A stretch of DNA of 64,000 nt from Candidatus Omnitrophota bacterium. Its GTDB lineage: Bacteria > Omnitrophota > Gorgyraeia > Gygaellales > JAQTUX01. Shown one piece after another: positions 1 through 21,872 of the stretch. Each line of letters opens with the position of its first letter. Positions within the stretch are counted from its first letter, which is position 1. A program made the translations under genes and the position numbers. The notes under the pieces were generated by a model, which saw nothing but the letters and a program-made list of their open reading frames with translations, was not told where the DNA came from and made no database searches. The DNA is taken from NCBI GenBank assembly GCA_028707125.1, contig JAQTUX010000001.1, positions 468,142 to 532,141 of the forward strand, read 5' to 3'.

Positions 1-301
1 ACTAAAAGACTCCCCATAAAGATTATTAGTAATCAAACGCAGAAAATGAGCACCATTAGAATTAAAATAGGCGAATTTTTTAAAACTCCCCAGAAAGTCA
101 CAGAGAAAAAGAACGAAGTAGCAATACCATTCGTATTAAATAAAGAGAAATTGTGGATGCGTTTGTCACTTGATAAAAAATAGGAAATAGTGATAGGAAA
201 TAGCGGGGACGGTTCTCTGGGATATTAGTTAGCGTAATAAGTTATGACACCTCGATTATAAATGCGAGGAGGCATTATCCGATAACAAAGGAGAGAGGGA
301 T

Positions 302-523
302 ATGGACAGAGAGACGAAGAACATAGTGGGTTTACTGGTCAATCTGGCTATACCAGGGATTGGAACAATTATTTGGGGTGATAGCAATAAGGGGGTAACG
401 CAGTTAGTCCTGTGGTTGGTAGGGGTATTTTTATCCTTTGTTATTATCGGTATTCCTTTAGTTTTTGGTGTTTGGGTTTGGGCTTTAGCAATGGGAATAA
501 AGAGGATGTCCAAAAATAAATAA
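302..523 (+). CDS. small integral membrane protein, TM2-domain-like
   Basis: 73-aa ORF with two hydrophobic helices and a Gly-rich pattern (IPGIGTIIWGD...QLVLWLVGVF) resembling TM2 domains. AGGAGAGAGGG RBS-like stretch lies upstream. Confidence 0.4.
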   Translation: MDRETKNIVGLLVNLAIPGIGTIIWGDSNKGVTQLVLWLVGVFLSFVIIGIPLVFGVWVWALAMGIKRMSKNK

Positions 524-651
524 TGAATACTGGCGGCGGGGCGCTTTTAGGCTGGAGGGTACCCCACACTTACGTGTGGGGAATGATACGATAAGAATAG
601 CCAGATGATTCTACACACGTAAGTGTGTAGAGGAAAAAAGGAGGGGGTGCG

Positions 652-1197
652 ATGCGCAAGGTAGTAGTCTTAGGAATTATAGCAATATTCGTGGTATTCT
701 TGGGGACTGCCCTATGCCAGGACATAGCGGGCAGGTGGTACGCGGGCGCGGCGGCAACTTATGTTCAGCCGGAAGACGCGGAATTCAAGGAAAAGCTGAC
801 GGGTTTAGGCAGGATATTTGTGGGCAAAGGAATAAATAACAATCTTTCCGCGGAGCTTGAGGCGGATAGTTTCAGGATGAAATCAAAAACCGGCTCTAAG
901 GTAAGGGTGAGCTCGGTCCTGGCCAGCCTGGAATTAAGGAAGAAGTTTGGAGTGATCTACCCTTACGCGCTGGCCGGATTGGGCTGGTCATTCTTCAGTT
1001 TTGACGGTATGACGCCCGCGGAGACAAAGGACAAATCAAACTCTTACGCGTATAAACTTGGCGCTGGAGTAGAGTATTTCCTGAATAAGGACTGGGCGCT
1101 GAATTATGAAGCGGCGCATTTTTACACCGACACAGGTGACACTCATTCCGATGTTTGGAACTGGCAGCACAGCATAGGCATAAAATACTATTTTTAG
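652..1197 (+). CDS. small outer-membrane beta-barrel protein (OmpW/OmpA-like 8-strand family)
   Basis: Signal peptide, alternating amphipathic strands and a C-terminal ...GIKYYF aromatic terminus typical of OMPs. GGAGGGGG RBS lies upstream. Confidence 0.5.
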   Translation: MRKVVVLGIIAIFVVFLGTALCQDIAGRWYAGAAATYVQPEDAEFKEKLTGLGRIFVGKGINNNLSAELEADSFRMKSKTGSKVRVSSVLASLELRKKFGVIYPYALAGLGWSFFSFDGMTPAETKDKSNSYAYKLGAGVEYFLNKDWALNYEAAHFYTDTGDTHSDVWNWQHSIGIKYYF

Positions 1198-1201
1198 TGG
1201 T

Positions 1202-1834
1202 ATGAAGGGTATATTCGTCACATTCGAGGGCTCTGAGGGCTCCGGCAAGAGCACGCACTCTAAGATGCTTTGTGATTATTTGAGGCGCGAGGGCCGCGAG
1301 GTGTTGTTTGCGCGCGAGCCGGGCTCGACGTTTGTGGGCGAGCAGATAAGGAAGGCCCTGCTCAGCGTGAGAAACAAGTCGATGTCTGCCAACTGTGAAC
1401 TGATGCTTTATATGGCGGCGAGGGCGCAGATCGTGGATGAGCTGATCATCCCCGCTTTGAAAAAAGGCGCCGCGGTGGTCTGCGACAGGTTCCTTGATTC
1501 AACGCTTGCCTATCAGGGCTATGGGCTGGGAATGGATTTATCGGCGATCCGCCACATGGGCAAACTGGTCACGCGCGGGATCAGGCCGGACATAACCTTT
1601 TTTCTTGATGTGGAGGTCAACGAAGGCCTTCGGCGCGCCGGCAGCGTAAAGGATAGGATAGAATTAAGGCCGCTTGCTTTTCACAGGAGAGTGAGGGCCG
1701 GCTATCTTAAGCTGGCAAAGGCCGAACCCGGCCGCGTCAAGGTGATCAAGGTCGACCACAATAAAGAGCAGACGCAAGAGGCGATAAGAAAACAGATAGA
1801 CGATCTGATAAAGAAATGTCATTTAAGAACATAA
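1202..1834 (+). CDS. tmk: thymidylate kinase
   Basis: P-loop FVTFEGSEGSGKST, DRF/LID-region motifs and ~210 aa length fit dTMP kinase. Confidence 0.85.
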   Translation: MKGIFVTFEGSEGSGKSTHSKMLCDYLRREGREVLFAREPGSTFVGEQIRKALLSVRNKSMSANCELMLYMAARAQIVDELIIPALKKGAAVVCDRFLDSTLAYQGYGLGMDLSAIRHMGKLVTRGIRPDITFFLDVEVNEGLRRAGSVKDRIELRPLAFHRRVRAGYLKLAKAEPGRVKVIKVDHNKEQTQEAIRKQIDDLIKKCHLRT

Positions 1835-2781
1835 TTGGACAGCCGCGGGCAATAGCGCTCATCAAGTCGCAATTAAAAGAGGGCACGCTTAAGGGCTCGT
1901 ATCTGTTCTGCGGCCCGTCCGGCATAGGCAAGACATTGACCGCGCTGGCCCTGGCAAAGGCGCTTAACTGCCAGGAGCAGGGCGATGATTCTTGCGGCGC
2001 CTGCCCTTCCTGCAGGAAGATAGACGGCCTTAATCATCCCGATGTTTTCCTGATAGAGAAGAAGGAAGGCGACTCGCAGATAAAGGTGGATGACATACGC
2101 CTGATGCTGGAAAGGATCGCCTTAAGGCCGTTTGAGGCAAAATGGAAGGTGTTTATTATCAGGGACGCGCAATACCTGAGTTTAGAGAGCGCCAACTGTC
2201 TGCTCAAGGCGCTGGAGGAGCCGCCGGATAATTCGCTGATCATACTCACCACGTCAAATTCCGCGGCGGTCATCCCCACGATCATCTCCAGGTGCAAGAA
2301 GGTTACCTTCGGCAGCCTGCCGCTTAAGGCGGTGGGGGATATCCTCTCGGAGAAGTATTCGCTGGAGGCGGACACGAGCCGATTTCTCGCCCAGTTCAGC
2401 GGGGGCTCTCCGGGTGAGGCGGCAAGGTTCAAGGATATGGATATGCTGGTCGTAAAGAACAGCATAATAGACACCTTTTTGTTCGGCCTCTACCCCAAGG
2501 TGCCCTCGGCCGTATTTGACGACGAGAGAGAGGACCTGAGATTTACCCTGGCGGTGTTAGCCGCCTACCTTCGCGATCTATGGATGCTGAAGATCGGCCT
2601 CAACAGCCGCCTGATAAATGAAGACAGGGCGGACAACCTTGAGTCAATGAGCGGCAGGTACAGTTTTGAGGAGCTGGACGCTGCATTTAACGACCTGAGC
2701 CAGTTGTCCTACCTGGCCGAGAGAAACGTAAGCACGAAACTGATATTCAACTTTCTGAGGTTAAGATTATGCAAGAGATAG
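1816..2781 (+). CDS. holB: DNA polymerase III delta-prime subunit
   Basis: AAA+ Walker A GPSGIGKT, zinc module CQEQGDDSCGACPSCRKI and sensor region. Sits directly downstream of tmk as in many bacteria. Confidence 0.8.
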   Translation: MSFKNIIGQPRAIALIKSQLKEGTLKGSYLFCGPSGIGKTLTALALAKALNCQEQGDDSCGACPSCRKIDGLNHPDVFLIEKKEGDSQIKVDDIRLMLERIALRPFEAKWKVFIIRDAQYLSLESANCLLKALEEPPDNSLIILTTSNSAAVIPTIISRCKKVTFGSLPLKAVGDILSEKYSLEADTSRFLAQFSGGSPGEAARFKDMDMLVVKNSIIDTFLFGLYPKVPSAVFDDEREDLRFTLAVLAAYLRDLWMLKIGLNSRLINEDRADNLESMSGRYSFEELDAAFNDLSQLSYLAERNVSTKLIFNFLRLRLCKR

Positions 2782-3557: not shown

Positions 3558-5035
3558 TGCCTGAAAAATTCTACATAACCACTCCGATCTATTACGTGAA
3601 TGCCTCTCCGCACATAGGGCATTCCTATACGACGGTTGCCGCTGATACTATCGCGCGTTTTATGAGGGGCAGGATCGGCAAGGAGAACGTGCTCTTTCTT
3701 ACCGGCACCGACGAGCACGGCCAGAAAGTGCAGCGCGCGGCGGAAGAGGCGGGCGTGGCCGTGCGGGAATTCACCGACAGGACATCCGGGAAATTCAGGG
3801 ATCTCTGGCAGGCGCTGAACATCCAATACGACGATTTTATACGCACTACGGAACAAAGGCACATTGAGGCGGTGCAGAAGGTTTTAACCATGCTTTATGA
3901 TAAGGGCGATATCTTTCAGTCAAAGTATGAGGGGCTCTACTGCACGCCCTGCGAGACATTCTGGACAGGGACTCAAGCCGAGGACGGGCTCTGCCCTGAC
4001 TGTAAGCGCAAGCTGGAAAGCATAAGCGAGACAAACTTCTTCTTTAATCTTTCTAAATATCAGGAAGCGCTTATGAAGCATATCGCCTCGCACCCGGGTT
4101 TTATCCGGCCCAGGATACGCGAGAACGAGGTGATGAGCTTTCTTGAGCATAACCGCTTGTCCGACCTGTGCATATCGCGCCCCAAAGAGCGGCTGGGCTG
4201 GGGCATCCCGCTGCCGTTCAGCCCGGATCATGTTACCTATGTCTGGTTTGACGCGCTGATAAATTACATCAGCGCGATCGGCTTCGCGCGGGACAGGAAG
4301 AAATTTGATAAATTCTGGCCGGCGGACATACACATCATGGCAAAGGACATACTCAGGCAGCACGCCATATACTGGCCGATAATGCTCATGGCCCTCGGCG
4401 AGAAGCTTCCCGAGGTAGTGTTCGCCCACGGCTGGTGGAAGATAGACGAGAAAAAGATGTCAAAGTCACTGGGCAACGTGGTTGACCCCTATGCCATGGT
4501 TGAGAAATACGGCGTAGAGGCCTACAGGTATTTCCTGCTCAGAGAGGTGCAGTTCGGCTTTGACGGCAACTTTTCCGAAGAGGCGCTGGTCAAGCGCGTC
4601 AACAGCGACCTTGCCAACGATCTGGGCAATCTCGCGCACAGGAGCGCCACGATGCTGGAGAAATACTGCGCCGGAAAACTGCCGGAGAAAGGCGGAGCGT
4701 TCCCCGCTGATTTTGACAAGGCGCTGAAAGAACTGCCTGAGGCGGTAGAGGCGTTCATGCTGGAATACAATTTCAGCGCCGCCCTTGAGAAGATATGGGG
4801 ACTTATAAACAAGGCGAACAAATACATAGAAGACACAAAGCCCTGGGCCCTGGCAAAAGAAAAGAAGGACAAGGAGCTGTATCTGTTCTTGAACCTTCTG
4901 GTTGAGGTGATAAAGACAGTGGCCGCGGCCCTTGCCGCGCTTATGCCTCAGGCCTCGCAGAAGCTGTTGAAGCAGTTCTCGGCTCCAGAGATCAAAAAGG
5001 GCGAGCCCTTGTTTCCGAGAATAGAGACCAATTGA
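3557..5035 (+). CDS. metG: methionyl-tRNA synthetase (short form without C-terminal tRNA-binding domain)
   Basis: HIGH motif (PHIGHSYT), KMSKS motif (KMSKSLGN) and zinc knuckle CTPCETF...CPDC. Confidence 0.85.
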   Translation: MPEKFYITTPIYYVNASPHIGHSYTTVAADTIARFMRGRIGKENVLFLTGTDEHGQKVQRAAEEAGVAVREFTDRTSGKFRDLWQALNIQYDDFIRTTEQRHIEAVQKVLTMLYDKGDIFQSKYEGLYCTPCETFWTGTQAEDGLCPDCKRKLESISETNFFFNLSKYQEALMKHIASHPGFIRPRIRENEVMSFLEHNRLSDLCISRPKERLGWGIPLPFSPDHVTYVWFDALINYISAIGFARDRKKFDKFWPADIHIMAKDILRQHAIYWPIMLMALGEKLPEVVFAHGWWKIDEKKMSKSLGNVVDPYAMVEKYGVEAYRYFLLREVQFGFDGNFSEEALVKRVNSDLANDLGNLAHRSATMLEKYCAGKLPEKGGAFPADFDKALKELPEAVEAFMLEYNFSAALEKIWGLINKANKYIEDTKPWALAKEKKDKELYLFLNLLVEVIKTVAAALAALMPQASQKLLKQFSAPEIKKGEPLFPRIETN

Positions 5036-5138
5036 AAGCGAAAAGCGCAAAGCGAAAAACGCAAAACTAAAACGTAAAGTTCAAAACGTTTTAAACTTTA
5101 AACTTTGGTTTTACGCTTTGCGCTTTACATTTTACGCT
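5036..5138. repeat. long imperfect palindromic intergenic element (copy 1); 3' 32 bp identical to the copy at 9959-9990
   Basis: aagcgaaaagcgcaaagcg...ggttttacgctttgcgctttacattttacgct; the two halves are reverse complements of each other. Confidence 0.6.
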
Positions 5139-5960
5139 ATGTTAACTGATACTCATTGCCACCTTGATTTCCCGGAATACGGCGAGGATCTGGAGCGGGT
5201 AATAGAGAACGCCAGGCAGGCGGGGATCGCCTTTATCGTGAATATCGGCTCCAGCTTGAAGTCCAGCCGGGAGGCAGTATCTCTGTCCGCGAAATACGAT
5301 TTTATTTATGCCGCGGTTGGCCTGCATCCTCACGAATGGAAAGGTTTCTCCGCCGCGGACATATCGGAGGTCAAGTCGTTAGCGGCAAATAAAAAGGTTG
5401 TGGCAATAGGCGAATGCGGGCTGGATTATCACAGGGCCCACGATAAGGAAAGGCAAAAACAGCTCTTTTCGGCGCATATAGATATAGCCAAAGAGAAGGG
5501 CCTGCCGCTGGTCATACACACCAGGGACGCGCACAATGATACGCTTGATATCTTAAGGCGCGCTTTCCCGGAGGGCGGTATCAGGGGGGTGGTGCATTGT
5601 TTTTCCGGCGACGAAAAGGTGCTTTCTGAGTGCCTTGAGCTGGGGCTGGACATATCCTTCACCTGCAATATAACATATCCCGCTAAGGGCTTTAATACCC
5701 GGCGGGATCCCGCCGATAATATACTTCAGCGGGACAAGAAGGCGGAGGATTTAAGAAAACTGGTCGGCATGATTCCGCTTGAACGGCTCTTGCTTGAAAC
5801 CGACGCGCCGTTCCTGCCGCCGCAGGAGTTAAGGGGCAGGCGTAATGAGCCGGCGTATGTGAAATACCTGGCTGACGCGATAGCGGAGATCAAGGGAATA
5901 AGTTTTGACGAGGTATCGCGCCAGACCGAAGCCAACGCCAGAAGGTTGTTTGGAATATGA
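5139..5960 (+). CDS. tatD: TatD family metal-dependent DNase/hydrolase
   Basis: MLTDTHCHLDF start motif and conserved His/Glu/Asp metal ligands (GLHPHE, ECGLDYH, VIHTRDA, VVHCFSG, ETDAPF). Start placed at the internal Met of the ORF beginning at 5118. Confidence 0.85.
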   Translation: MLTDTHCHLDFPEYGEDLERVIENARQAGIAFIVNIGSSLKSSREAVSLSAKYDFIYAAVGLHPHEWKGFSAADISEVKSLAANKKVVAIGECGLDYHRAHDKERQKQLFSAHIDIAKEKGLPLVIHTRDAHNDTLDILRRAFPEGGIRGVVHCFSGDEKVLSECLELGLDISFTCNITYPAKGFNTRRDPADNILQRDKKAEDLRKLVGMIPLERLLLETDAPFLPPQELRGRRNEPAYVKYLADAIAEIKGISFDEVSRQTEANARRLFGI

Positions 5961-7081: not shown

Positions 7082-7097
7082 GTACGCTCGCGCGTCT

Positions 7098-9871: not shown

Positions 9872-9990
9872 AGCGTAGAGCGTAAAACGAAAAGCGCAAA
9901 ACTAAAGTGCAAAACTTAAAACTTTAAAACAAGAAAACTTTAAACTTTAAGTTTTGGTTTTACGCTTTGCGCTTTACATTTTACGCTAAC
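9872..9990. repeat. long imperfect palindromic intergenic element (copy 2)
   Basis: agcgtagagcgtaaaacgaaaagcgcaaaac...ggttttacgctttgcgctttacattttacgct; same family as 5036-5138. Confidence 0.6.
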
Positions 9991-11049: not shown

Positions 11050-12161
11050 AGAAAGAATTCTTCCGTCCCACAATAGCCGAGATAGACCTGGGCGCGCTGG
11101 AATATAATTTCCGGCAGATAAAGCGCAGGGTCTCGTCGCATACAAAGATACTGGTGACGGTCAAGGCAGACGCCTACGGACACGGCATACTGCGGGTTTC
11201 CAAGCGGCTGGTACGCTGCGGCGTGGATTATTTAGGCGTTGCTTCTCTTGATGAGGCCGTATGTTTGAGAAGGGCAGGGGTGAAATGCCCAATACTTGTC
11301 CTGGGCGTGATCTTCCCCGAACAGGCCGGGACGGTCATCGATCACGATCTGACGCAGACCGTCTGCACCCTTGATGTCTGCCGCGCCCTGGACCGGCTGG
11401 CGGCGCGCAGGCACAAACGGGTCTCTGTCCACGTAAAGATAGACACAGGTATGGGCCGGCTGGGTGTCAGCTGGGGCGACGCCGAAGAATTCATCAGCGC
11501 CCTGTATAAGCAGATGAAGCACGTTTCCATAGAGGGCATCTTTACCCATTTTCCCCGCGCCGATGATAATAAAGCCCTTACCGGACGGCAGATAAGCATG
11601 TTCAGCGCCCTGGTGCGCCGGCTTGAGAAGAAGGGCATATTCATCCTGTTCAAGCACTGCGCCAACAGTATGGCTGTGCTGGATTATCCCGGAAGCCATT
11701 TTAATCTTATAAGGCCGGGACTGATCATTTACGGCCTGTATCCCAAAGACGGCTTAGACATACGGCTGAAACCGGCGATGGGACTGAAGTCAAAGATAGT
11801 TTTTATGAAATCAGTGAAAAAAGGCACGCCGTTAAGCTACGGCCATACCTATATAACCTCTAAAGATACCTCAGTAGCAGTTGTCCCCATTGGTTACGGC
11901 GACGGCTATTCCCGCGGCCTATCCAATAAGGCCCAGGTTTTGATCAAGGGCAGGCGTTTTCCTGTTGTGGGCACTATCTGCATGGACCAGATCCTGGTTG
12001 ATACAGGCAGGTTAAAGGCAAAGGTGGGAGATGAAGTTGTCTTGATCGGCCGTCAGGGAAAACAGGCAATTACCGCTGAAGAGATCGCCCGCCTCACGCG
12101 CACCATCCCTTATGAAGTCGTCTGCCAGGTAGGCAGGCGCGTCCCGCGGATATACAGGTAA
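11031..12161 (+). CDS. alr: alanine racemase
   Basis: PLP-lysine motif VTVKADAYGHGI and C-terminal beta-domain. Its 3' 70 nt are duplicated at 21792-21872. Confidence 0.9.
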   Translation: MPDQEMKKEFFRPTIAEIDLGALEYNFRQIKRRVSSHTKILVTVKADAYGHGILRVSKRLVRCGVDYLGVASLDEAVCLRRAGVKCPILVLGVIFPEQAGTVIDHDLTQTVCTLDVCRALDRLAARRHKRVSVHVKIDTGMGRLGVSWGDAEEFISALYKQMKHVSIEGIFTHFPRADDNKALTGRQISMFSALVRRLEKKGIFILFKHCANSMAVLDYPGSHFNLIRPGLIIYGLYPKDGLDIRLKPAMGLKSKIVFMKSVKKGTPLSYGHTYITSKDTSVAVVPIGYGDGYSRGLSNKAQVLIKGRRFPVVGTICMDQILVDTGRLKAKVGDEVVLIGRQGKQAITAEEIARLTRTIPYEVVCQVGRRVPRIYR

Positions 12162-12168
12162 TATTTAC
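12088..12168 (+). repeat. left copy of the 81-bp direct repeat (alr 3' end plus 9 nt); right copy at 21792-21872
   Basis: 61 nt are identical (cccgcctcacgcg...gtcccgcg), followed by 20 nt with 4 mismatches. Confidence 0.8.
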
Positions 12169-12244
12169 TTGACAAGATGTATTCTATGTAGTATTGTGAT
12201 TTTGTAATAACTATAAGTAAATCAAATAGTTACATTCCAGATAA

Positions 12245-15200
12245 GTGTCGTTCACGAACAAATTACCTATCCTGATTTTAAAGAAAATAACCCAAACAGG
12301 GATACTCTGCGTATCCCTGTTTTTGTTTTATCTGCCATTTGCATTTGCAGACATATCTGCATCAGCCAATGTCGGTCTGACGTTAAACAGCGTTAGAGGC
12401 CGCACTATCATGGCAGGCGCCCGGCCGATTTCATTCACGTTGCGAGTTCAATACAACGGCACAAATCAACTGACTTTTGGCGCAGAAGGATTGCGGGGAA
12501 ATGCCACTTTAGACGCCCAGACAGGCAGGTTCTACTGGATGCCAGAGGAAACTGATGTAGGAACACACCCTATCACTTTCCGGGTAACAGATGGTGTAGA
12601 AACCGACCAAAAGACAGTCACATACACTATTCTGCATAACTCTACTCCTTACACGGGCTCAGTCAGTCCCGATGATGAGATAGTCCGCTCCAATGAACAG
12701 TTGGAGTTTATTGCTACTTATTTTGACAACGCCGGCTGGCAGGACATACAGGATGTGTATATGTCTATCGGAGGGGCTTACTTCAGGTATAACCTACCTG
12801 AAAATAAGCTATATGCCTCAAGTAACTTTTCCCAATGGAATGGCGGTTATACCCCAGGCACAGCACAGATCATACAGGTAGACTTGGACGAATGGCAGGC
12901 AAGACTGGATTGTTCCAAAGTTAATATAAATGGTTCAGGTAAGGCATTAGAAATTAAATGGCCCATTCTATTTATAAATAAGACGAGGCACAATATAAGA
13001 AAGAACGTCTCTTTGTATGCTAAAGATAGAAACAACCTTGATTCCGGCTGGAGGGAGTCAGGGGAGATTAAAATTAGAGGATTAAAAGGCCGCATCCTTA
13101 CCTTTGGTCAGACCATAATAGATACTATTTCTAAAGAAAACTTTACTGTGACCTACACCTTTAGCGCCTCTAAAGACGACTACATCTACATGGCATTTGC
13201 CAAGACAGAAGGAAGTGACTTCCAGCCCTACCTTCAGTTATTTGATCCAAGCGGCAGCCATATTGCTTACGTATACGATACCACAGCCAACGCGCTCGGC
13301 ACGACACTAACCGCAACAGGCAGATATGTGTTAACCGTCTCAGACCACAACGGCGAAAATACCGGCAGCTACGCTTTGACCCTTCAGCGCTTTAATAACC
13401 CGGGCCAGGCATCTGCCCTAACTGCAGGCCAGACCCAATCCGCCTCCATATCAGCCCCCTCTGAAATAGACGCCTACAGCTTTACAGCGGCCTCAGCCGA
13501 CACCTTGATCATAAACCTGGTCAAGACATCAGGAGAGTTTAGGCCCTACATAGGAGTATATGACGATAAGGGCAAGCTGCTTAAAAAAGTTGATACCTCT
13601 TCTTCAGTCACCTTAAGTATGCCGCTTGCTCGGGCAGGGGTTTACTACATCTATGTGAGGGACTCCTATAACTATGAGACAGGAAGCTACAGTATAGCCC
13701 TGCAGGGCGCCAGCAATCCTGAACTTATCCAGCTCTCCTTCGGCCCTACAGTAACAGGCGCTATCTCTGCTGCAAGCCCGACAGTCACCTACACCTTTAG
13801 CGCCTCTAAAGACGACTACATCTACATGGCATTTGCCAAGACAGAAGGAAGTGACTTCCAGCCCTACCTTCAGTTATTTGATCCAAGCGGCAGCCATATT
13901 GCTTACGTATACGATACCACAGCCAACGCGCTCGGCACGACACTAACCGCAACAGGCAGATATGTGTTAACCGTCTCAGACCACAACGGCGAAAATACCG
14001 GCAGCTACGCTTTGACCCTTCAGCGCTTTAATAACCCGGGCCAGGCATCTGCCCTAACTGCAGGCCAGACCCAATCCGCCTCCATATCAGCCCCCTCTGA
14101 AATAGACGCCTACAGCTTTACAGCGGCCTCAGCCGACACCTTGATCATAAACCTGGTCAAGACATCAGGCCAGTTTACGCCTCGTCTGACAGTATATGAC
14201 AGTAAGGGCAAGCGGCTTGAGAGCGCTAATATCTTTTCAGATACCTTAAGCGCCTCACTTCCTCAGGCAGGCGTCTACCACATCTATGTAGTGGACTCCT
14301 ATAACTATGAGACAGGAAGTTATGACATAAGCCTGCAGAGCGCCAGTAATCCCGATGGCGCTGTAGACATTGCTTTCGGTGAGACAGTAACGGGTGAGAT
14401 TTCTTCTCCTATGGATACGGATGTATATGGCTTTACCGTAAATGAAGGTGATAATTTATACGCGGATATACGTTTTCCCAAAGTCAGCGGCAATAGTTAT
14501 TTCTCTCCATATGTGCGGCTGTATGATAGGTCAGGCAATATGATTGCCGATTCTACCTCGGGTATGCTTCTTCACTCTTTGCCTTCCGCAGGAACTTATT
14601 ATATTTTTGTCTCCGACAATTATATGGATGCCACAGGCAGCTATCAACTTACTCTGTCCAATGAGACCCCTGATATAGATAATCTTTCAGTTACGCCCAA
14701 TCCTTTTTCTCCGGACGAAAGCGGCACCTGGGTAGATCTGGATACAGGGGAAATATTCAACGACCCGGGGCCTAACCGCGTTCTGGACGATGTAGCCAAT
14801 ATTTCTTTTACCGCCTCTATGCAGGGATTTTTTGATATCAAGATTATTGATAGTAACAGCCAGCTGGTCAGGCAGCTTGTTTATGACGTATTAACTCCGG
14901 ATCACCGGACTAATTTGATACGAGTGCAGTGGAATGGCCGCAGCCAGAATAGTGATTTAGTTCCAAACGGCGCGTATACGCTGATAGTAAACTCCGGAAA
15001 TGTTGACAGGTGTCTGACCGCGACAATTAATGTAAACAAAATTGTTTTTATCACTATTGCCAGAATAACGCCAAATCCTTTTTCTCCTGACCGTGACGGT
15101 GTAGACGAAACAACCACCCTTTCTTACAGTTTATCTGAGAATTCCTATGTCAGCGTAGAGATTTATAACCAGCAAAATACTCTATTAAGAAAGTTAGCAG

Positions 15201-16279
15201 ACAATCAACTCCTTAGCTACGGCAGCCATAGCCATATCTGGGACGGTAAAGATAGTCAGGGTGCATACCTTCCTGAAGGCAGATACACTGTGAAGATAAG
15301 CGCTAAGGCAGAGGATGGAAAAGACGCAGCTCCTGTTTACCTGAATGTTGCCATACTGTTTATTTCTGATATCCGTATTTCTACGGACGAGATTAATCCT
15401 TACGCAGGAGAGGCCGTAACCATATCTTATAGAATGTCACATGAAGGCGTTTTAAATATTAAAATTTATAATAATAAAAATGCATTGGTAAGGAATCTTA
15501 TTCTAAACCAGCCCCGCCAGTCAGGCACATACTCAGAGGTTTGGGATGGCAAAGATAATGCCGGCAGGATTGTGCTTGACGGCGCCTACTATTTTATCAT
15601 AGAGGACAGCAAGGGTGGCGCTGTCTATGATCCTCGCGGCACAGGCGGGAAAGATATCTCCGGCAGCATCCGCCTGTCGGCATCTGATTTTAATCTGCTT
15701 CTTAATCAATTCTGTGTTATAGATTATACTCTGCCCCAGGCAGCAAAGATTAATCTTAAGGTCCGCTATGATAGATATTCAGGCCCGGCTGTCAGGGTGT
15801 TGAAATATCAAGAGCCGGTTTCTTCAGGCGCGCACCAGACGCTCTGGGACGGCAGGGATGAGACAGGAGATTTTGTTGACCGTACTGATTTTACCTTTGC
15901 CATCTGGGGATATACATTGGATGAGAATTCCATTTTGGTTGTGGGAGATAGACCTGTAATTAGCAATCCGGCTATTATCCCGGTCCGTTTTAGCCCTTAT
16001 GATAATCCTTATAGCACAGGTGTTTCAGAAGGCACAATCTCCTTTAATCTATCCAGAGATGCCAATGTTACGATAAATATTTATGATTCTGAAGGTAATC
16101 TGGCGCGCAATCTGCTGAATAATCAGCCCTGCGCGCAGGGCAGCAATTCTTTTATCTGGAACGGCAGAAATAACGAAGGTAATTTTGCGTCTGAAGGGTT
16201 TTATCGGGTAGCAATTCAGGCGGAAAAAGACGGCAATTATTCGGAAGGTTATACCTTGCATACGGAGATTTTCTATTGA
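12245..16279 (+). CDS. giant secreted surface protein with tandem PPC (pre-peptidase C-terminal) domains followed by ~5 FlgD-Ig-like domains
   Basis: Signal peptide. Repeated ...DAYSFTA...AGVYYIYV.DSYNYETGSY motifs (PPC-like). Repeated NPFSPD..G......L.Y.L.....V.V.IY....L.R.L...Q..G.H...WDG motifs (FlgD-Ig-like). GTG start. Confidence 0.6.
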   Translation: MSFTNKLPILILKKITQTGILCVSLFLFYLPFAFADISASANVGLTLNSVRGRTIMAGARPISFTLRVQYNGTNQLTFGAEGLRGNATLDAQTGRFYWMPEETDVGTHPITFRVTDGVETDQKTVTYTILHNSTPYTGSVSPDDEIVRSNEQLEFIATYFDNAGWQDIQDVYMSIGGAYFRYNLPENKLYASSNFSQWNGGYTPGTAQIIQVDLDEWQARLDCSKVNINGSGKALEIKWPILFINKTRHNIRKNVSLYAKDRNNLDSGWRESGEIKIRGLKGRILTFGQTIIDTISKENFTVTYTFSASKDDYIYMAFAKTEGSDFQPYLQLFDPSGSHIAYVYDTTANALGTTLTATGRYVLTVSDHNGENTGSYALTLQRFNNPGQASALTAGQTQSASISAPSEIDAYSFTAASADTLIINLVKTSGEFRPYIGVYDDKGKLLKKVDTSSSVTLSMPLARAGVYYIYVRDSYNYETGSYSIALQGASNPELIQLSFGPTVTGAISAASPTVTYTFSASKDDYIYMAFAKTEGSDFQPYLQLFDPSGSHIAYVYDTTANALGTTLTATGRYVLTVSDHNGENTGSYALTLQRFNNPGQASALTAGQTQSASISAPSEIDAYSFTAASADTLIINLVKTSGQFTPRLTVYDSKGKRLESANIFSDTLSASLPQAGVYHIYVVDSYNYETGSYDISLQSASNPDGAVDIAFGETVTGEISSPMDTDVYGFTVNEGDNLYADIRFPKVSGNSYFSPYVRLYDRSGNMIADSTSGMLLHSLPSAGTYYIFVSDNYMDATGSYQLTLSNETPDIDNLSVTPNPFSPDESGTWVDLDTGEIFNDPGPNRVLDDVANISFTASMQGFFDIKIIDSNSQLVRQLVYDVLTPDHRTNLIRVQWNGRSQNSDLVPNGAYTLIVNSGNVDRCLTATINVNKIVFITIARITPNPFSPDRDGVDETTTLSYSLSENSYVSVEIYNQQNTLLRKLADNQLLSYGSHSHIWDGKDSQGAYLPEGRYTVKISAKAEDGKDAAPVYLNVAILFISDIRISTDEINPYAGEAVTISYRMSHEGVLNIKIYNNKNALVRNLILNQPRQSGTYSEVWDGKDNAGRIVLDGAYYFIIEDSKGGAVYDPRGTGGKDISGSIRLSASDFNLLLNQFCVIDYTLPQAAKINLKVRYDRYSGPAVRVLKYQEPVSSGAHQTLWDGRDETGDFVDRTDFTFAIWGYTLDENSILVVGDRPVISNPAIIPVRFSPYDNPYSTGVSEGTISFNLSRDANVTINIYDSEGNLARNLLNNQPCAQGSNSFIWNGRNNEGNFASEGFYRVAIQAEKDGNYSEGYTLHTEIFY
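13148..14169 (+). repeat. intragenic tandem duplication, 636-bp period; 386 bp are 100% identical between units (13148-13533 vs 13784-14169)
   Basis: Exact DNA identity, giving an identical 128-aa peptide TVTYTFSASKDDYIYMAF...LVKTSG. The adjacent halves of each unit are only ~60-70% identical. Confidence 0.9.
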
Positions 16280-16285
16280 TATGGG

Positions 16286-16717
16286 GTGGACGGGATGAAA
16301 AAAACGAGTATGTATATTCTGTTTTTCATAGCCGCATTCTCTTTTAATCTTTTAGCAAAAGAGGCGTATCAAAACCAGTTGATTTTGGAATTAAACTTTC
16401 CAAAAGAAAGCACTGCTAAAATGGAGGCGCCGCGACCAAAGGCAGAGGCCCTGTCCATTTCCGGCGAAATCCTTGTTAACATCAGCCCTGTTCCTGAGAA
16501 AATAGAACAGGACAGGTATTTGGTGGAGTATTTCTTAGATGAGCAGTTAATATATCGAACCACCGGTTTTGACAGGCGCACTTTTGCCTGTATTCTGGAT
16601 ACTGCCCAATATGAAAACGGCACGCATAAGCTGATCATTAATTTCTGGGATAAATCCGGCCCTTCAGCCATCGGCATAAGAGAGCTTATCATTAACAACG
16701 AGGAAACAAATGAATAA
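16286..16717 (+). CDS. hypothetical secreted protein
   Basis: Signal peptide MYILFFIAAFSFNLLA and no recognisable motif. Lies immediately upstream of rhs with a 4-nt overlap. Confidence 0.3.
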   Translation: MDGMKKTSMYILFFIAAFSFNLLAKEAYQNQLILELNFPKESTAKMEAPRPKAEALSISGEILVNISPVPEKIEQDRYLVEYFLDEQLIYRTTGFDRRTFACILDTAQYENGTHKLIINFWDKSGPSAIGIRELIINNEETNE

Positions 16718-19700
16718 CCGCCTCCTGAAGATCCTCTCGGTATTCACGCTTTTCTTCTTTGTTTCCAATATCTTCATACCCCCTGTAGCCCTTGCCGAGC
16801 TTCCCTGCTGGAACGATGCCTCGCTTGCTTCCGGAGAGGGCGGGGTAGATGATGCAGCCACCGCAGGCGGCAAGCCCGCTGGCATAAACCAGAAGAACAG
16901 GACAGAGGCAGCAGATCCTGTTGATGTCTCAAACGGCAATTTCTTCTACCAGAACCAGGATTTATCCATCCCTTCACGAGGACTCTCCTTAGAGATAAAG
17001 CGCTTCTACAACAGTTTAGACACCTACGAAGGCCCCTTTGGCATAGGCACAAGCCACAGCTATAATATATTCTTGTTGGAGATTTCAGAAGCAAGCCAGA
17101 CATACGTTCTAAGGCGTAACGCCAACGGCTCAAAGGACAGATTCCTGCGGAATGCCGACGGTTCCCATACACCTTCAGCTGGCTGCTATGACACCTTAAC
17201 CAAAGACACAACCGGCTACCTGATACAGGACAAGTATGGCTTCATCTATCGCTTTGGTTTAGATGGTCGCCTTAACTCAATCACTGACCGAAACAACAAC
17301 ACAATCTCCTTAGAGTATGACTCACAATCATCTGTATTAAGCAGAGTCAGCGACAGCTTAAGCCGCTTTATTGAATTCGCTTATAACCCCCAGCGCAAGA
17401 TAAGCCAGGTAAGCGACTCTACCGGCCGCCTGATCTCATATGAATACGATTCAGACGGCAATCTAATCTATGTAACCACTCCTGCCACAGGGGATTATCC
17501 TTCAGGACTGACTACCACATACGCCTACGACGATAAGCACAGGTTAACCTCCATAACAAACGCCAGGGATAGGCGATATATATCCCTGGAGTATGATGAA
17601 AATAGCCGCGTAAAGGATCTTACCTATGGAGCAGGCGTATATCGCTTTAGCTATAAGAGCGCTCTTACAACCCTTATTGACCCCAGGGGCTTTACGACAG
17701 AATACGAGCTTAATACAGATGGCACAGTCCAGAGCCAGAAGCAATACGCCGGCAGCTCATCTTATCAAACCAGATACGAATACAACCAGAACCGCGAGCG
17801 CACCAGGATAACCTATCCTGAGGGCAACTGGGTTAAATACACCTATGATAATAAGGGCAGCATTCTGGAAATCAGGCGCAAGAAAGCCAACGCCTCTGAC
17901 AGTGATGACCCTGCAAATGACATAGTAGCTGCCTTTAGCTATGAGCCGCAGTTTAACTTCGTCAAGACCGCAACAGACCCTAAGGGCAACGTTACTACCT
18001 ATGATTATGACTCAAAAGGAAATCTCATCAAAATAATCTATCCGGCTGTTAACGGCGTAAAACCCGAAGTTAAATTCGCCTATAGTGCTTACGGCCCGCC
18101 AACCAGCGTAACAGACCCTAACGGTAATGTAACTACCTATGATTACGACCCTGATACTGGATACTTAGTCAAAACAACCGCTGCTCAAGGCGTTCTTAAC
18201 CTTATCACCCGGTTTACCTACGACACAACCGGTAACATCAAAACCGTAACCGACCCCAAAGGCAGCACCACGACATTTGAATACGACAGCCACAACAACC
18301 TGATTAAGACCACATCCGCTTCACCATTTAACTATGAGACCCTCTATAAATACGATGAGAACGATAACCTGATTGAGCTCCACAGACAGACCGGCGACCC
18401 TGATAATCCCTGGCAGACAACCTCCTACACCTATGATATCCTTGACCGGCTGGACTCTGTCAAAGACGCCATAGGCAATACCTCTAACTTTATCTATGAC
18501 TTAAACGGCAACCGCCGCTCGCTTGCAGATGCGGAAGGTAATACTACTACTTATGAATACGATGAACGCAATCTACTCTGGAGGGTAACCGACGCAGAGA
18601 ATAATGTTACAGAATACTCCTACGATACAAACGGCAACCTCAAGCAAATCACTGACGCAAAAGGCAATGCTACCGTCTACACCTACGACAGCTTTGATCG
18701 GCTCATCTCTACCACCTACGCTGACGACTCAATAGAGGAATACACCTATGACGCCAATTCCAACCTCATCACCAAAAAAGACCCCAAAGGCCAGGTCATC
18801 ACCTACGCCTATGACTCCATTAACCAGCTGGACTTAAAGACCTATCCTGATAAATCAAGCGTTGACTATGTTTATGACATCGGCTCCCGGCTTGTTGATG
18901 TCATTGACAAAATCGGCACCATACACTATGACTATGATGCGGCCAGCCGAATTACCAGCGTAACCTATCCCGGCAATAAATCCGTCTCTTACGAATACGA
19001 CGCCAATTCCAACCGCAGCAAGCTAACCTACCCCGATAATACCTATCTTACCTATATATATGATGAACTCAACCGCCTGACCAATGTAGTTGCCCCATTG
19101 ATGGGGCAAGGCAGTGCCGTCGCCTCCTACACCTATGACGCCCTCTCCAGACGCACCCGGCTTGACTACCTCAACAATACCTACTCGCTCTATGACTATG
19201 ACCCAGCCAGCCGCCTGACAACGCTTACCAATGTCTCTAACTCTATACCTAACCCCTACTCCTACACCTATGATAACGCGGGCAACAGGACGTCATTGCG
19301 AGGAGCCGAAGGCGACGAAGCAACCTACACCTATGACAAGACCTACCAGCTCACAGCCGTCAACTACCCTGACGGCTTTGCCTTCTTTGACACTGCCTAC
19401 GACTATGATGAGATAGGCAACCGCACGACAAACTACACCTCAAACTCCCTCAACCAATATACCAAGGCAGGTACAACCAACCTCGCCTACGACAGCAACG
19501 GCAACCTCACCAATGACGGCAGCTTCACCTACGCCTATGACTACGAGAACCGGCTGGTGAGCGCCTCGTCATTGCGAGGGAGCGAAGCGACCGAAGCAAT
19601 CTACGCCTACGACCCCTTCGGCAGGCGCACCTCAAAGTCATTGCGAGGAGCCGAAGGCGACGAAGCAATCTCCTACATCTACGATGGCGACCAGATCATC

Positions 19701-20468
19701 GCGGAATACGACGCAAGCAACAATCTCATCGCTAAATATATCTATGGTACGGGTATAGATGAACCCATTCTTATGCAAAGGGGGGAGAATGCTTATTACT
19801 ACCACTTTGACGGCCTGGGAAGCGTAGTAAACCTCACCGACTCTTCCGGCTCAAAGGTTGAAAGCTACACCTACGATGCCTACGGTAATCCCATTATCCA
19901 CGATCCATCATCCAATATCCTTCTTCAATCCTCCGTTGGTAATCGCTACATGTTCACAGGAAGAGAATATGATGATGAGACGGGGCTGTATTACTACAGG
20001 GCGAGGCATTATTCGCCGATGATTGGGAGATTCTTGCAGAGGGACTCTTGGCCAGGAATACCAGAAGATCCCGGTTCACTCGTTAATAAATATACCTACT
20101 GCTCCAACAATCCCATAAATTGGATAGATCCTTATGGGTGGGATAAACAGAAGAAGGATCAACCATGGTGGATTGTAGTTGGAGGTATTACAGTAGCTAC
20201 ACCTATTCAAGGGGATGAAGCAATCTTTTGGACAGGAGTAGGTATAGTTGCAATAGGTAGTTATGCTGTTCATCAGTTTAGTAAATATCACGCAAAAGGT
20301 CCGTTATGGAATGCTCCAGGTATGCCAGGGTGGAATTTAAGGCAATATGAAGAACGACAACCAGGAGCTTTCAAGCCACCGCCAAATTTTAAGAATTGGA
20401 AAGATAGAATTATATGGGCAGCTGGTTTACTCGCTAAATTATTTAATAATTTCAGAGGAGGCAGATGA
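16710..20468 (+). CDS. rhs: Sec-secreted Rhs/YD-repeat polymorphic toxin with variable C-terminal domain
   Basis: Signal peptide, dozens of YD repeats (xYxYDxxGNL) and the Rhs core ending ...YYYRARHYSPMIGRFLQRD...NNPINWIDPYGW. A ~120-aa divergent hydrophobic C-terminal domain follows, in visibly AT-rich DNA. Confidence 0.8.
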   Translation: MNNRLLKILSVFTLFFFVSNIFIPPVALAELPCWNDASLASGEGGVDDAATAGGKPAGINQKNRTEAADPVDVSNGNFFYQNQDLSIPSRGLSLEIKRFYNSLDTYEGPFGIGTSHSYNIFLLEISEASQTYVLRRNANGSKDRFLRNADGSHTPSAGCYDTLTKDTTGYLIQDKYGFIYRFGLDGRLNSITDRNNNTISLEYDSQSSVLSRVSDSLSRFIEFAYNPQRKISQVSDSTGRLISYEYDSDGNLIYVTTPATGDYPSGLTTTYAYDDKHRLTSITNARDRRYISLEYDENSRVKDLTYGAGVYRFSYKSALTTLIDPRGFTTEYELNTDGTVQSQKQYAGSSSYQTRYEYNQNRERTRITYPEGNWVKYTYDNKGSILEIRRKKANASDSDDPANDIVAAFSYEPQFNFVKTATDPKGNVTTYDYDSKGNLIKIIYPAVNGVKPEVKFAYSAYGPPTSVTDPNGNVTTYDYDPDTGYLVKTTAAQGVLNLITRFTYDTTGNIKTVTDPKGSTTTFEYDSHNNLIKTTSASPFNYETLYKYDENDNLIELHRQTGDPDNPWQTTSYTYDILDRLDSVKDAIGNTSNFIYDLNGNRRSLADAEGNTTTYEYDERNLLWRVTDAENNVTEYSYDTNGNLKQITDAKGNATVYTYDSFDRLISTTYADDSIEEYTYDANSNLITKKDPKGQVITYAYDSINQLDLKTYPDKSSVDYVYDIGSRLVDVIDKIGTIHYDYDAASRITSVTYPGNKSVSYEYDANSNRSKLTYPDNTYLTYIYDELNRLTNVVAPLMGQGSAVASYTYDALSRRTRLDYLNNTYSLYDYDPASRLTTLTNVSNSIPNPYSYTYDNAGNRTSLRGAEGDEATYTYDKTYQLTAVNYPDGFAFFDTAYDYDEIGNRTTNYTSNSLNQYTKAGTTNLAYDSNGNLTNDGSFTYAYDYENRLVSASSLRGSEATEAIYAYDPFGRRTSKSLRGAEGDEAISYIYDGDQIIAEYDASNNLIAKYIYGTGIDEPILMQRGENAYYYHFDGLGSVVNLTDSSGSKVESYTYDAYGNPIIHDPSSNILLQSSVGNRYMFTGREYDDETGLYYYRARHYSPMIGRFLQRDSWPGIPEDPGSLVNKYTYCSNNPINWIDPYGWDKQKKDQPWWIVVGGITVATPIQGDEAIFWTGVGIVAIGSYAVHQFSKYHAKGPLWNAPGMPGWNLRQYEERQPGAFKPPPNFKNWKDRIIWAAGLLAKLFNNFRGGR

Positions 20469-20962
20469 TAAAAAATAAATTACTTTTTCATATGATACCA
20501 ATAGAAGATAGAACTAATAAAGGTTATAAGAATTTAGTTGAAAATATTTTAAAACATGCTTTCTATTTTATTCCAGCAGAAGATTTGGAGGGAATAGAAA
20601 AAATAATACTTTTAGATGAATGCCAAGATCGAGAGTTTAAATGGGCGGGTGGATTTTATTATGCCTATGAAGAAAAGGATGCTATTATAGAACTGTATCC
20701 TCCAAAAATAATAGATGCAAAACCATTTTTTGTTCCAACATCAAAATTCTTTAATAGTTACTCAATCACTAAGATGTTTTTGCATGAATTGGGACACCAT
20801 AAATTCGGAAATGTGCAGGAACGAGAATTCAAAGCTCAAGAATACATGGTGTTATATATTAAGAAAATATATGGCAATTGGATTTATTTTTTTGATTTTT
20901 TAGCTAGACTAGATAATTTTTTACGTAAGTTTCTCAAAACCTTCAACAAAAAAGCAATGTAG
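20465..20962 (+). CDS. small protein downstream of the Rhs C-terminus: candidate immunity protein or HExxH zincin-like partner
   Basis: ATGA overlap with the rhs stop and GGAGG RBS. Contains HELGHH (HExxH) at residues ~107-112. AT-rich. Confidence 0.35.
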   Translation: MIKNKLLFHMIPIEDRTNKGYKNLVENILKHAFYFIPAEDLEGIEKIILLDECQDREFKWAGGFYYAYEEKDAIIELYPPKIIDAKPFFVPTSKFFNSYSITKMFLHELGHHKFGNVQEREFKAQEYMVLYIKKIYGNWIYFFDFLARLDNFLRKFLKTFNKKAM

Positions 20963-21022
20963 TATAACGAAAAAACGCCAACGAAGCTTTACATAACTAG
21001 CAATACATAATGGGCATAACGG

Positions 21023-21036
21023 GGACGGTTCTCTTT
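21023..21036 (+). repeat. REP-like motif GGGGACGGTTCTCT (copy upstream of RAYT)
   Basis: Same 13-14-mer occurs at 206-220 (+) and as the reverse complement at 21775-21790. Confidence 0.6.
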
Positions 21037-21157
21037 ATCATAACCTTAACTATCATAATCACTTACAACACCTACTTTATAAATTTTAAGATTTCTTGCA
21101 AGTAAACGCCTCATTTTTGCGTCTATTATAGTAGAAGGGCAGAAAGGGGGCGTTTTT

Positions 21158-21763
21158 ATGCCACGAGACAGAAGGCACATACCAGAGGCAGGTTTCCTGC
21201 ACGTTATATCCAGAGGCAACAACAGAAGGAAGATATTTCGGTATGAGAGAGATTTAGAGGCGTATTATTCAATTCTTCTTCAAAGCAAAGCAGAAGACAG
21301 AATCAACATCTCTCATTATTGCCTGATGAGCAATCATATACACTTGATACTGGAGGTAAACGAAGCAAGCAACCTTTCCAGGTTCATGAAGCGGGTAAAC
21401 CTGAGGTACGTCTACTATTACAGAAGAAAGTATGCCTACTGCGGCCATCTCTGGCAGGACAGGTTCAAGGCAAAGACTATAGACAATGAGGAATACCTTA
21501 TTCAATGCGGCAAATACATAGAGCTGAATCCTGTTAGAGCGGGCATAGTCAAGAGACCTGAAGAATATCGGTTTTCCAGTTACCTCCACTATGCTTATGG
21601 AGCTGAGGATGTATTGATACAAGATAATCCTTTCTACTCTGAATTGGGAGAGAGCCAAGAGCGAAGGCAAACAATTTACAGAGATATGATTATAGAAGAG
21701 ATGATAGAGAAGGGCCTAAGACAGGAAAAAATAATTGAGCACTCAGAACTTATTGCGGTATAA
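21158..21763 (+). CDS. REP-associated tyrosine transposase (RAYT) / IS200-like Y1 HUH transposase
   Basis: HUH motif SNHIHLILEV and catalytic Tyr region YYYRRKYAYCGHLWQDRF, with N-terminal HVISRGNNRRKIF. Flanked by inverted GGGGACGGTTCTC motifs. Confidence 0.75.
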   Translation: MPRDRRHIPEAGFLHVISRGNNRRKIFRYERDLEAYYSILLQSKAEDRINISHYCLMSNHIHLILEVNEASNLSRFMKRVNLRYVYYYRRKYAYCGHLWQDRFKAKTIDNEEYLIQCGKYIELNPVRAGIVKRPEEYRFSSYLHYAYGAEDVLIQDNPFYSELGESQERRQTIYRDMIIEEMIEKGLRQEKIIEHSELIAV

Positions 21764-21774
21764 TAGATAACAGC

Positions 21775-21790
21775 AAGGAGAACCGTCCCC
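21775..21790 (-). repeat. REP-like motif (inverted copy downstream of RAYT)
   Basis: aggagaaccgtcccccc is the reverse complement of GGGGACGGTTCTCCT. Confidence 0.6.
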
Positions 21791-21791
21791 C

Positions 21792-21872
21792 CCCGCCTCA
21801 CGCGCACCATCCCTTATGAAGTCGTCTGCCAGGTAGGCAGGCGCGTCCCGCGCGTATACAAATAATATTTAC
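21792..21872 (+). repeat. right copy of the alr 3'-end direct repeat (degenerate C-terminal coding fragment ...RLTRTIPYEVVCQVGRRVPRVYK*)
   Basis: 61/61 nt identical to 12088-12148, then 16/20 identical. Its stop abuts the convergent lptF/G stop. Confidence 0.8.

Follow-up and report, generated by a model that had tools for sequence, protein, structure and literature searches.

A short RAYT-lineage Y1 gene in a probable TIRtron beside an RHS toxin gene of Candidatus Omnitrophota

Introduction

Among the genes that resemble those of REP-associated tyrosine transposases (RAYTs; REP, repetitive extragenic palindromic sequence), some lie between long terminal inverted repeats (TIRs) and not between REPs; Di Nocera, De Gregorio and Rocco (2013; BMC Genomics 14:522; PMC3733652) named these genes TIRYTs and the units that they form TIRtrons. 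Many of the TIRs share the octamer GGGGWSAS, and TIR copies form moderately abundant families in which they occur singly, as dimers or in groups (PMC3733652). Here we analyze a unit that probably belongs to this class, a Y1/HUH tyrosine transposase-like gene between two inverted copies of a short motif, in a 64,000-nucleotide stretch of a Candidatus Omnitrophota genome (GenBank assembly GCA_028707125.1, contig JAQTUX010000001.1, positions 468,142 to 532,141 of the forward strand), hereafter called the window. An earlier reading of the letters alone, hereafter the original prediction, had described this gene as a RAYT accompanied by its cognate REP-like motifs.

Later surveys placed most TIRYTs within the wider Y1 family. 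Quentin et al. (2018; PMC6006769) assigned 20 of the 26 genes of Di Nocera and colleagues to their subclass 2.1, for which REP-like structures were explicitly not found and whose signature, according to their Table 1, is NHVH (or NH[YF]H), W[EQ] and YIELNP (or Y[IV]HLNP). The proteins of this subclass have a median length of 238 amino acids (aa) and a C-terminal helix-turn-helix (HTH)-like domain (Bac_DnaA_C, HTH_23 or HTH_28). In the same classification YxxxNP is the signature of class 2 (TnpAREP-like) and YxxxQ that of IS200, and IS200/IS605 elements are described as lacking terminal inverted repeats (PMC6006769). Subclass 2.1 maps, in the table cited above, to Group 1 of Bertels et al. (2017; PMC5581495), the largest and most widespread RAYT group, which shows the second-highest rates of duplicates and of plasmid location among the groups and whose flanking 16-mers are modestly repeated, at about 12 per replicon (PMC5581495).

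Results

Three copies of a 13-nt core and the ends of a 770-bp unit

The evidence presented below makes it quite likely that the 770-bp unit at 21021–21790 is a TIRtron, in which a RAYT-lineage Y1 gene (subclass 2.1-like and Group 1-like, without an HTH) lies between imperfect TIRs of about 60 nt with a perfect 13-nt outer core, and that 205–263 holds a solo end of the left type (Table 1). The 13-mer GGGGACGGTTCTC occurs exactly three times in the window, at 205–217 (+), 21021–21033 (+) and 21778–21790 (−), against about 0.002 copies expected for an exact 13-mer (uniform expectation, 2 × 64 kb). The original prediction had reported an inverted pair flanking the gene and a third copy near the start of the window; all three exist as exact 13-mers, at coordinates that differ by 1–2 nt from those first given. 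When up to two mismatches were allowed, the only additional sites were 36424 and 40728; shuffled sequences yield 1.03 sites at this threshold. These two sites are the two arms of a single long inverted repeat; they point outward, have no further TIR box in common with the three copies, and were rejected as family members.

In each of the three window copies, and likewise at the ends of related loci, conserved boxes run about 60 nt inward from the core, as GGGGACGGTTCTC, approximately 22 nt, and CAATAAGTTATGA..CAC..ATTAT. An alignment of nine ends, three from the window and six from the closest three genome loci, with a left and a right end each, distinguishes left ends, which go on as ..ATTATAAAT, from right ends, which go on as ..ATTATTTTTT. 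In pairwise local alignments, the solo copy matches either end over 60–65 nt with scores of 37–38, the 95th percentile of the background being 21. This copy is intergenic, 24 nt past the stop of a plus-strand open reading frame (ORF; stop at 181) and 85 nt before an ATG at 302, and its core is directly preceded by ATAGGAAATAG in tandem (×2, 181–204). The inner part of TIR-R doubles as the coding sequence for the last ~12 codons of the Y1 ORF, and its outer edge is flush with the core; the ATA[AG]CG flank of the other two copies is missing there. The inverted core is thus perfect over 13 nt at 21021 and 21790, and the extensions to about 60 nt are imperfect.

None of the three copies behaved as a hairpin. 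Single-strand DNA folds of the copies on both strands were no better than those of shuffled sequences (z −1.8 to +1.4), so that the folding check of extended contexts proposed in the original prediction came out negative, and an alignment fold of the nine ends gave only a 5-pair, G-T-dependent stem with neither covariation nor compensatory change. The 13-mer is non-palindromic, and no GT[AG]G (GTAG/GTGG) foot was found at the core. The window repeats are therefore unlike the 20–40-nt imperfect palindromes with a 5′ GT[AG]G foot that characterize REPtrons. They are not REPs but terminal inverted repeats of ~60 nt, imperfect outside a perfect 13-nt core, and the labels "REP-like" and "canonical" REP arrangement have to give way to the TIR-flanked variety. 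For annotation, a RAYT flanked by inverted motifs is not by itself proof of a REP system.

A short protein on the RAYT side of the Y1 family

The product of the Y1 gene matches, with 100% identity, MDD4909485.1 of a Candidatus Omnitrophota metagenome-assembled genome (MAG; 1,261,957-bp contig), and a second, N-terminally deleted paralogue, MDD4910180.1 (P0003; 88% identical), is encoded on the same contig. The protein scores 66 bits with Pfam Y1_Tnp, and its best-scoring NCBIfam model is NF047646 (REP-associated tyrosine transposase; 76.7 bits), while the IS200/IS605 model NF033573 gives only 24.6 bits against a cut-off of 55. In the PDB, E. coli TnpAREP (4ER8) is the sole meaningful sequence relative (E = 7e-4). 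On the strength of the two model scores, the 4ER8 match and the YxxxNP motif in place of YxxxQ, sequence comparison places the protein, as first proposed, on the RAYT side of the Y1 family and not with IS200.

Across an alignment with ten homologues, H60 and H62 (NHIH, 59–62), W99-Q100 and YIELNP (120–125) are invariant, and Y120 aligns with the tyrosine-bearing YIYINP motif of E. coli TnpAREP. The predicted catalytic tyrosine is accordingly Y120 in YIELNP, with H60/H62, inside NHIHLIL, as the predicted HUH motif. The 201-aa HUH tyrosine transposase of the original prediction thus stands (ORF 21158–21763), with its catalytic motif moved from the tyrosine-rich run YYYRRKY (residue 86) to Y120. 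The window motifs NHIH, WQ and YIELNP agree with the subclass 2.1 signature, and homologues show NHVH; membership was judged from these motifs and the shared TIRs, not from the hidden Markov models of the authors of that classification.

In some close relatives an AT-hook-like tail, RGRPRK, takes the place of the HTH. Relatives of 260–275 aa show weak C-terminal hits to Bac_DnaA_C, HTH_23 or HTH_19 and are accompanied by the same GGGGACGGTTCT core, which suggests that the window protein is a short derivative of, or a sister clade to, long HTH-bearing forms. The shared core, together with HTH families named for subclass 2.1, links the window protein, short as it is, with the long classical form.

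An antisense ORF of 133 aa (21269–21670, −) lies within the Y1 gene and has blastp matches to antisense ORFs of other loci; it is probably a by-product of sense-strand conservation and not a gene.

The core is conserved beside divergent homologues

Relatives were collected from species-representative genomes (51 loci), metagenomes (80 loci) and exact-protein look-ups, and the combined set holds 134 distinct related loci from several phyla, 89 of them testable for both flanks. The best match among the species-representative genomes is 67% identical. The exact 10-mer GGGACGGTTC stands inverted on both flanks in 32 of the 89 testable loci; in the remaining sequence of those loci its density is 0.34 copies per 10 kb, compared with a uniform expectation of 0.019, an excess of about 18-fold. 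For each gene we also compared the 350 nt upstream with the 400 nt downstream and took the longest inverted repeat that they share. Within the closest clade this repeat always falls on GGGGACG[G/T]TTCT, often extended to AAAGGGGACGGTTCTATTTTT, and the GGGGACG[GT]TTCT core was recovered in this way at no fewer than 15 genome loci (≥15). The metagenome loci, an independent set, gave a GGG(G)AC/GGGGT-cored flanking repeat in 42 of the 61 with enough flank.

The 10–12-nt core GGGACGGTTC(T) therefore stays constant beside homologues that are just 35–67% identical, in hosts that include Omnitrophota, Planctomycetota, Elusimicrobiota, the candidate phyla radiation (CPR) and Proteobacteria-labelled MAGs. 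Such conservation beside divergent proteins implies that the core is the likely recognition site of the protein. More distant homologues carry other cores (GGTACCGGTACC, GGGACGTTCCC, GGGGACAGTCCCC and GGGGTCAG), as expected if enzyme and site evolve together. The DNA of the closest relative, locus L249, resembles that of the window from a point about 10 nt outside the core through to the gene.

Some relatives carry head-to-head core doublets, 17–60 nt apart, that form 20-bp DNA hairpins. The doublets of L110, L112 and L113 fold with z-scores of −7 to −10, the single ends of the window being unfolded, and L113 holds five doublets in 20 kb. Dimers or groups of the core were seen in L110, L112, L113, L116 and L137, the last with a 150-nt pair resembling miniature inverted-repeat transposable elements (MITEs). 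The doublets and the MITE-like pair indicate that the family can generate REPIN-like or MITE-like derivatives. In the window's own lineage the family seems quiet: L106–L108, L157 and L164 contain just the two flanking cores in 16–20 kb, two related genes, P0017 and P0011, were each seen at one fixed site across five to eight assemblies, and the window adds one solo end. In viral contigs, a 14-mer scan returned 105 stretches, nearly all with a single match, and two contigs with tandem copies spaced 39 nt apart.

Further repeats were observed around the ends of several loci. Purine-rich short tandem repeats with a period of 8–23 nt (ATAGGAAATAG ×2, GGGAAAGGAAAA ×2, ACAATAAAGGGCAATAAAGGGGAC ×3) lie directly outside many TIR cores (Table 1); the right end of the window element, which abuts a duplicate of alr, has none. 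L109 has extra right-end copies at 10672 and 11149, downstream and in direct orientation, one of them with a second, partial Y1 ORF (10673–11146). L176 has right-end copies in direct orientation at 10505–10541 and 13152–13188, one of them 2.6 kb off, beyond a tetratricopeptide repeat (TPR) gene; the ORFs between the two copies encode the TPR protein and unknowns, with no obvious orphan toxin modules.

The element at the edge of a 9.6-kb RHS island

The Y1 element closes a 9.6-kb island (12169–21791) that differs from its surroundings in a lower G+C content and a reversed GC skew and that is bracketed by an 81-nt direct repeat of the 3′ end of alr (identified by Pfam Ala_racemase_N and Ala_racemase_C). 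The displaced copy starts one base past TIR-R, with lptG/lptF next on the minus strand, so the original prediction was right that the downstream motif adjoins the alr duplicate at the island edge (21790 versus 21792), the island being a 9.6-kb insertion. The island ends on the right exactly where the TIR-R core has its outer edge; at the left edge (12080–12420), the search for a TIR-like sequence gave a background-level score, and no integrase was found in the island. A break at the core edge would suit this right boundary, and so, no less well, would Campbell-type integration via the 81 nt of alr homology: the four mismatches between the repeats all fall in the last 20 nt, and a crossover within the first ~60 nt, which are identical, would leave just that pattern.

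The island carries an RHS-repeat polymorphic toxin gene, whose core ends in NPINWIDPYG (residues 1134–1143) and is followed by a variable C-terminal tail of 109 aa. The 165-aa ORF that overlaps its stop codon encodes a putative immunity protein, a proposal that derives from position; it has no Pfam hit. In a sensitive search of all ORFs (1.3 Mb), RHS-family ORFs were detected in 11 of the 134 distinct related loci, always within 2.1 kb of the Y1 gene (≤2.1 kb), as in the window. In 10 of the 11, the RHS gene is upstream, on the same strand and with its 3′ toxin-encoding end facing the element; in L153 another RHS gene converges from the opposite side. Compared with random placement within loci, this proximity has P ~5e-6, a generous value in that loci were treated as independent. 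The other recurrent neighbour families were ordinary two-component-system genes and were dismissed.

Two loci illustrate what varies. L176 repeats the order of the island, with an adhesin (43% identical), a small ORF (33%), an RHS protein (50%), an unrelated immunity ORF and the Y1 protein (52%), followed by different downstream genes. In L249, whose Y1 protein is 81% identical, the RHS core ends in NPVKYVDPTG, and a different tail and small ORF precede the element. The C-terminal tails after NPxxxxDPxG and the immunity ORFs are unrelated between loci; with the RHS core and the Y1 element conserved, this describes a variable cassette bracketed by two conserved pieces. Our literature search found no report linking RAYT/TIRYT genes with RHS loci, and in the library searched the terms TIRYT or TIRtron appear in just two papers.

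From these data one could argue that the Y1 element is a mobility or boundary module of RHS islands, a proposal that we regard as unlikely, though it survives better than the other alternatives. A TIRYT cut at the outer edge of the core would then mobilise the RHS operon by one-ended, circle-forming excision, or would provide a conserved downstream arm for the exchange of toxin/immunity cassettes. The confined distance and orientation of the RHS genes, the recurrence of the whole island order in L176 before different downstream genes, and the varying tails and immunity ORFs between conserved flanks speak for it, as does an island that stops exactly at the TIR-R core edge, with the outer flank lost and the alr duplicate adjoining. 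However, about 88% of the loci with at least 1.5 kb of upstream sequence have no RHS gene, the P0017 and P0011 elements lie between housekeeping genes, and the left island edge is without a TIR-like sequence. The 81-bp duplication fits Campbell-type homologous or site-specific integration, for which an HUH enzyme is not needed, and shared ancestry of several RHS-linked loci may inflate the statistic. The link may also be passive, since RHS 3′ regions are known dumping grounds for mobile DNA. In E. coli Rhs loci, H-rpt (ISAs1-family) elements are transposase-type elements habitually found 3′ of rhs, and they are DDE-type insertion sequences (ISs), not Y1/HUH.

Internal repeats were observed in two island genes. 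The intact RHS ORF holds three copies of a 62-nt repeat (GTCATTGCGAGGAGCCGAAGGCGACGAAGCAA...; 19292–19353, 19568–19629 and 19637–19698), which may be an in-frame intragenic repeat insertion. The surface-protein gene (1344 aa) contains an internal tandem duplication of ~636 nt, 93% identical over 300 nt (Table 1).

Alternative origins of the repeats

According to the canonical REP/RAYT model, the gene would be a single-copy domesticated RAYT whose cognate REPs form a large dispersed hairpin family (REPINs, or bacterial interspersed mosaic elements, BIMEs) within this genome. The RAYT lineage of the protein, the inverted flanking copies with a further copy in an intergenic gap, and the dense hairpin doublets of some relatives such as L113 favour this model, yet the window copies are unfolded, non-palindromic and free of GT[AG]G. 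Moreover, beyond the element's own ends the window holds one extra copy of the motif in 63 kb and no doublet, the repeat unit is a ~60-nt end instead of a 20–40-nt REP, the protein bears the signature of subclass 2.1, a class without REPs, and the genome encodes a second, degenerate gene copy. We therefore consider a canonical REP system improbable.

It is highly improbable that the unit is a conventional IS200/IS605-type IS whose ends share a short motif by accident. This would suit the Pfam name "Transposase IS200 like", the public annotation "transposase" and the two gene copies in the genome, but not the low NF033573 score, the YxxxNP motif or the presence of TIRs; subterminal hairpins are absent, and tnpB is absent too, no other sense-strand ORF being found between the two ends of the element. 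The original prediction had set its RAYT apart from conventional IS200/IS605 transposases flanked by IS ends, and the protein does not cluster with these.

The 13-mer could instead be a site of host regulation or have recurred by chance, unconnected with the Y1 gene, given that a gene starts 85 nt downstream of the copy at 205 and that the copy at 21778 (minus strand) was picked up by a terminator-like scan that allows G-T pairs; this, too, has next to nothing to recommend it, as the same inverted core flanks homologues in dozens of unrelated genomes, Rfam gave no match, and promoter and terminator scans at the copies found nothing convincing (shuffle level), the G-T-dependent "terminator" at TIR-R excepted.

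Other repeats in the window

Two copies of an A-rich imperfect palindrome of ~100 nt lie at 5035–5139 and 9870–9988, in the gaps after metG and after thiL. With arms of 44–49 nt, a loop of 11 nt and a sequence that begins AAAGCGAAAAGCGCAAAGCG..., this dispersed repeat is more REP/MITE-like than the GGGGACGGTTCTC motif. Inverted repeats of ~360–430 nt occupy 36342–36702 and 40389–40822, with best arms 96–98% complementary and an internal 72-nt tandem duplication (40596–40728) in the latter; both arms contain GGGGACTATTCTC and no other TIR box. The segment between them has a low GC content (0.34–0.39) and convergent ORFs of 410 aa (no Pfam hit) and 810 aa (weak TPR hit), and 36342–40822 may be an invertible or inserted cassette.

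Table 1. Coordinates of the Y1 element, its island and comparable features of related loci (L numbers); coordinates are those of the window unless a locus is named.
Feature	Coordinates	Strand	Remarks
TIR-L (left terminal inverted repeat)	21021..21084	+	perfect core GGGGACGGTTCTC at 21021-21033, then subterminal boxes ..AATCACTTACAACACC..TTTATAAAT
Y1/HUH tyrosine transposase-like gene, 201 aa (MDD4909485.1)	21158..21763	+	ORF, Pfam, NCBIfam, alignment
TIR-R (right terminal inverted repeat)	21726..21790	-	core 21778-21790
Solo TIR copy, left-end type	205..263	+	core 205-217; boxes AATAAGTTATGACACC..ATTATAAAT
Purine-rich tandem repeats	181-204; L109 9851-9875; L116 9826-9850; L141 8415-8441; L164 7903-7927; L176 9711-9779
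RHS-linked loci	16710-20468 with 21021-21790; L109, L116, L120, L123, L133, L141, L147, L153, L176, L249
Direct repeat copy A	12088..12168	+	3′ end of functional alr (alanine racemase, 11031-12161), last 74 nt + 7 nt; island left edge
FlgD_ig/PPC/CHU_C surface protein, 1344 aa	12245..16279	+	first island gene
Duplicated segments in surface-protein gene	13101-13400 / 13737-14036; 13555-13722 / 14191-14355
143-aa ORF	16286..16717	+	second island gene
RHS-repeat polymorphic toxin gene, 1252 aa	16710..20468	+	3′ end toward Y1 element
165-aa ORF	20465..20962	+	overlaps RHS stop codon; ends 59 nt before TIR-L
Direct repeat copy B	21792..21872	+	displaced alr 3′-end duplicate; 81 nt, 95% identical

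Discussion

The window element is best described as a further TIRYT/TIRtron, a kind that is known but has hardly been studied; it is a short form, and its core is unusually well defined and widely conserved. TIRs, not stem-loop REPs, flank the Y1 gene in the window and in its relatives alike, and extra TIR copies are present as the solo copy here and as dimers or groups in relatives. The likeness to the published TIRtrons further includes a RAYT-like Y1 gene, TIRs at a similar distance from the gene, a GGGG-rich start and a moderate number of extra copies. The differences concern the hosts, which are Omnitrophota and other candidate phyla that were unsampled in 2013, the protein, which is short and without an HTH tail, and the core, which at 10–12 nt is conserved well past the published 8-mer. 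With subclass 2.1/Group 1 the element shares the signature, the lack of nearby REP hairpins, a low copy number with occasional duplicates, and a broad, patchy taxonomic spread that suggests horizontal transfer; it differs in its 201 aa and undetected HTH against a median of 238 aa and an HTH.

In E. coli TnpAREP/REPtron (4ER8; Ton-Hoang 2012, Messing 2012), the HUH and Tyr-NP core aligns with the window protein and inverted cognate repeats likewise bracket the gene, but those repeats are 35-nt GTAG-footed hairpins in hundreds of copies, whereas the window has no hairpin, no GTAG and few copies. The inverted cores of L110, L112 and L113, which form long hairpins, recall the REPIN doublets of Bertels and Rainey (2011; PMC3116915); in contrast, the window has no such doublet, and each half is non-palindromic. 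IS200/IS605 TnpA proteins (IS608, ISDra2) share the HUH/Y1 fold family and presumably the single-strand cut-and-rejoin chemistry, and differ in YxxxQ (against YxxxNP in the window), subterminal hairpins, the lack of TIRs, the frequent presence of tnpB and a high copy number.

Several points weigh against assigning the window element to the TIRtrons. The window core GGGGACGG matches GGGGWSAS at 7 of 8 positions, with G and not A at position 7; more distant relatives carry GGGGACAG, GGGGTCAG and GGGGACAC, which fit it. Pairwise similarity between TIR-L and TIR-R is confined to the 13–16-nt core, so the longer ~60-nt TIR rests on the multi-locus alignment and not on this pair. The NF047646 score of 76.7 bits falls about 3 bits under the cut-off of 80. 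Pfam detects no C-terminal HTH and nothing beyond Y1_Tnp at E up to 1, whereas all 20 published subclass 2.1 TIRYTs have an HTH tail (Quentin et al. 2018; PMC6006769). Finally, the data show how the unit is built, where its protein belongs in the family and how strongly the core is conserved relative to that protein; binding and cleavage at the core are inferred.

By analogy with TnpAREP and IS608 TnpA, which act at hairpins, the enzyme would bind the core and would cut and rejoin single-stranded DNA at the core or just outside it, by means of the HUH metal site together with Tyr120 as nucleophile. Being inverted, the two cores could pair on one strand and give the kind of stem that Y1 enzymes usually read; the head-to-head hairpin doublets and MITE-like pairs of related genomes would then be minimal substrates. 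The system in this genome appears to be of low copy number and almost immobile, whether domesticated or rarely mobile, and does not resemble an expanding REP population, to judge from the fixed sites of P0017 and P0011 and from the single further paralogue, which is N-terminally deleted.

With a candidate recognition site as sharply defined as GGGACGGTTC(T), assays of binding and cleavage become straightforward, the hairpin doublets and the 150-nt MITE-like pair of related genomes offer natural minimal substrates, and the link to RHS toxin genes at their 3′ ends, which is not random, suggests a biological context. It is conceivable, though in our view doubtful, that the Y1 element acts as a conserved 3′ boundary module, in which a nick at the outer edge of the GGGGACGGTTCT core would allow the RHS operon or its toxin/immunity cassette to be excised, circularised and re-integrated, with the TIR-R/alr junction as the scar. 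If this were true, the largest and functionally unexplained RAYT group would gain both a cellular role and a defined DNA substrate.

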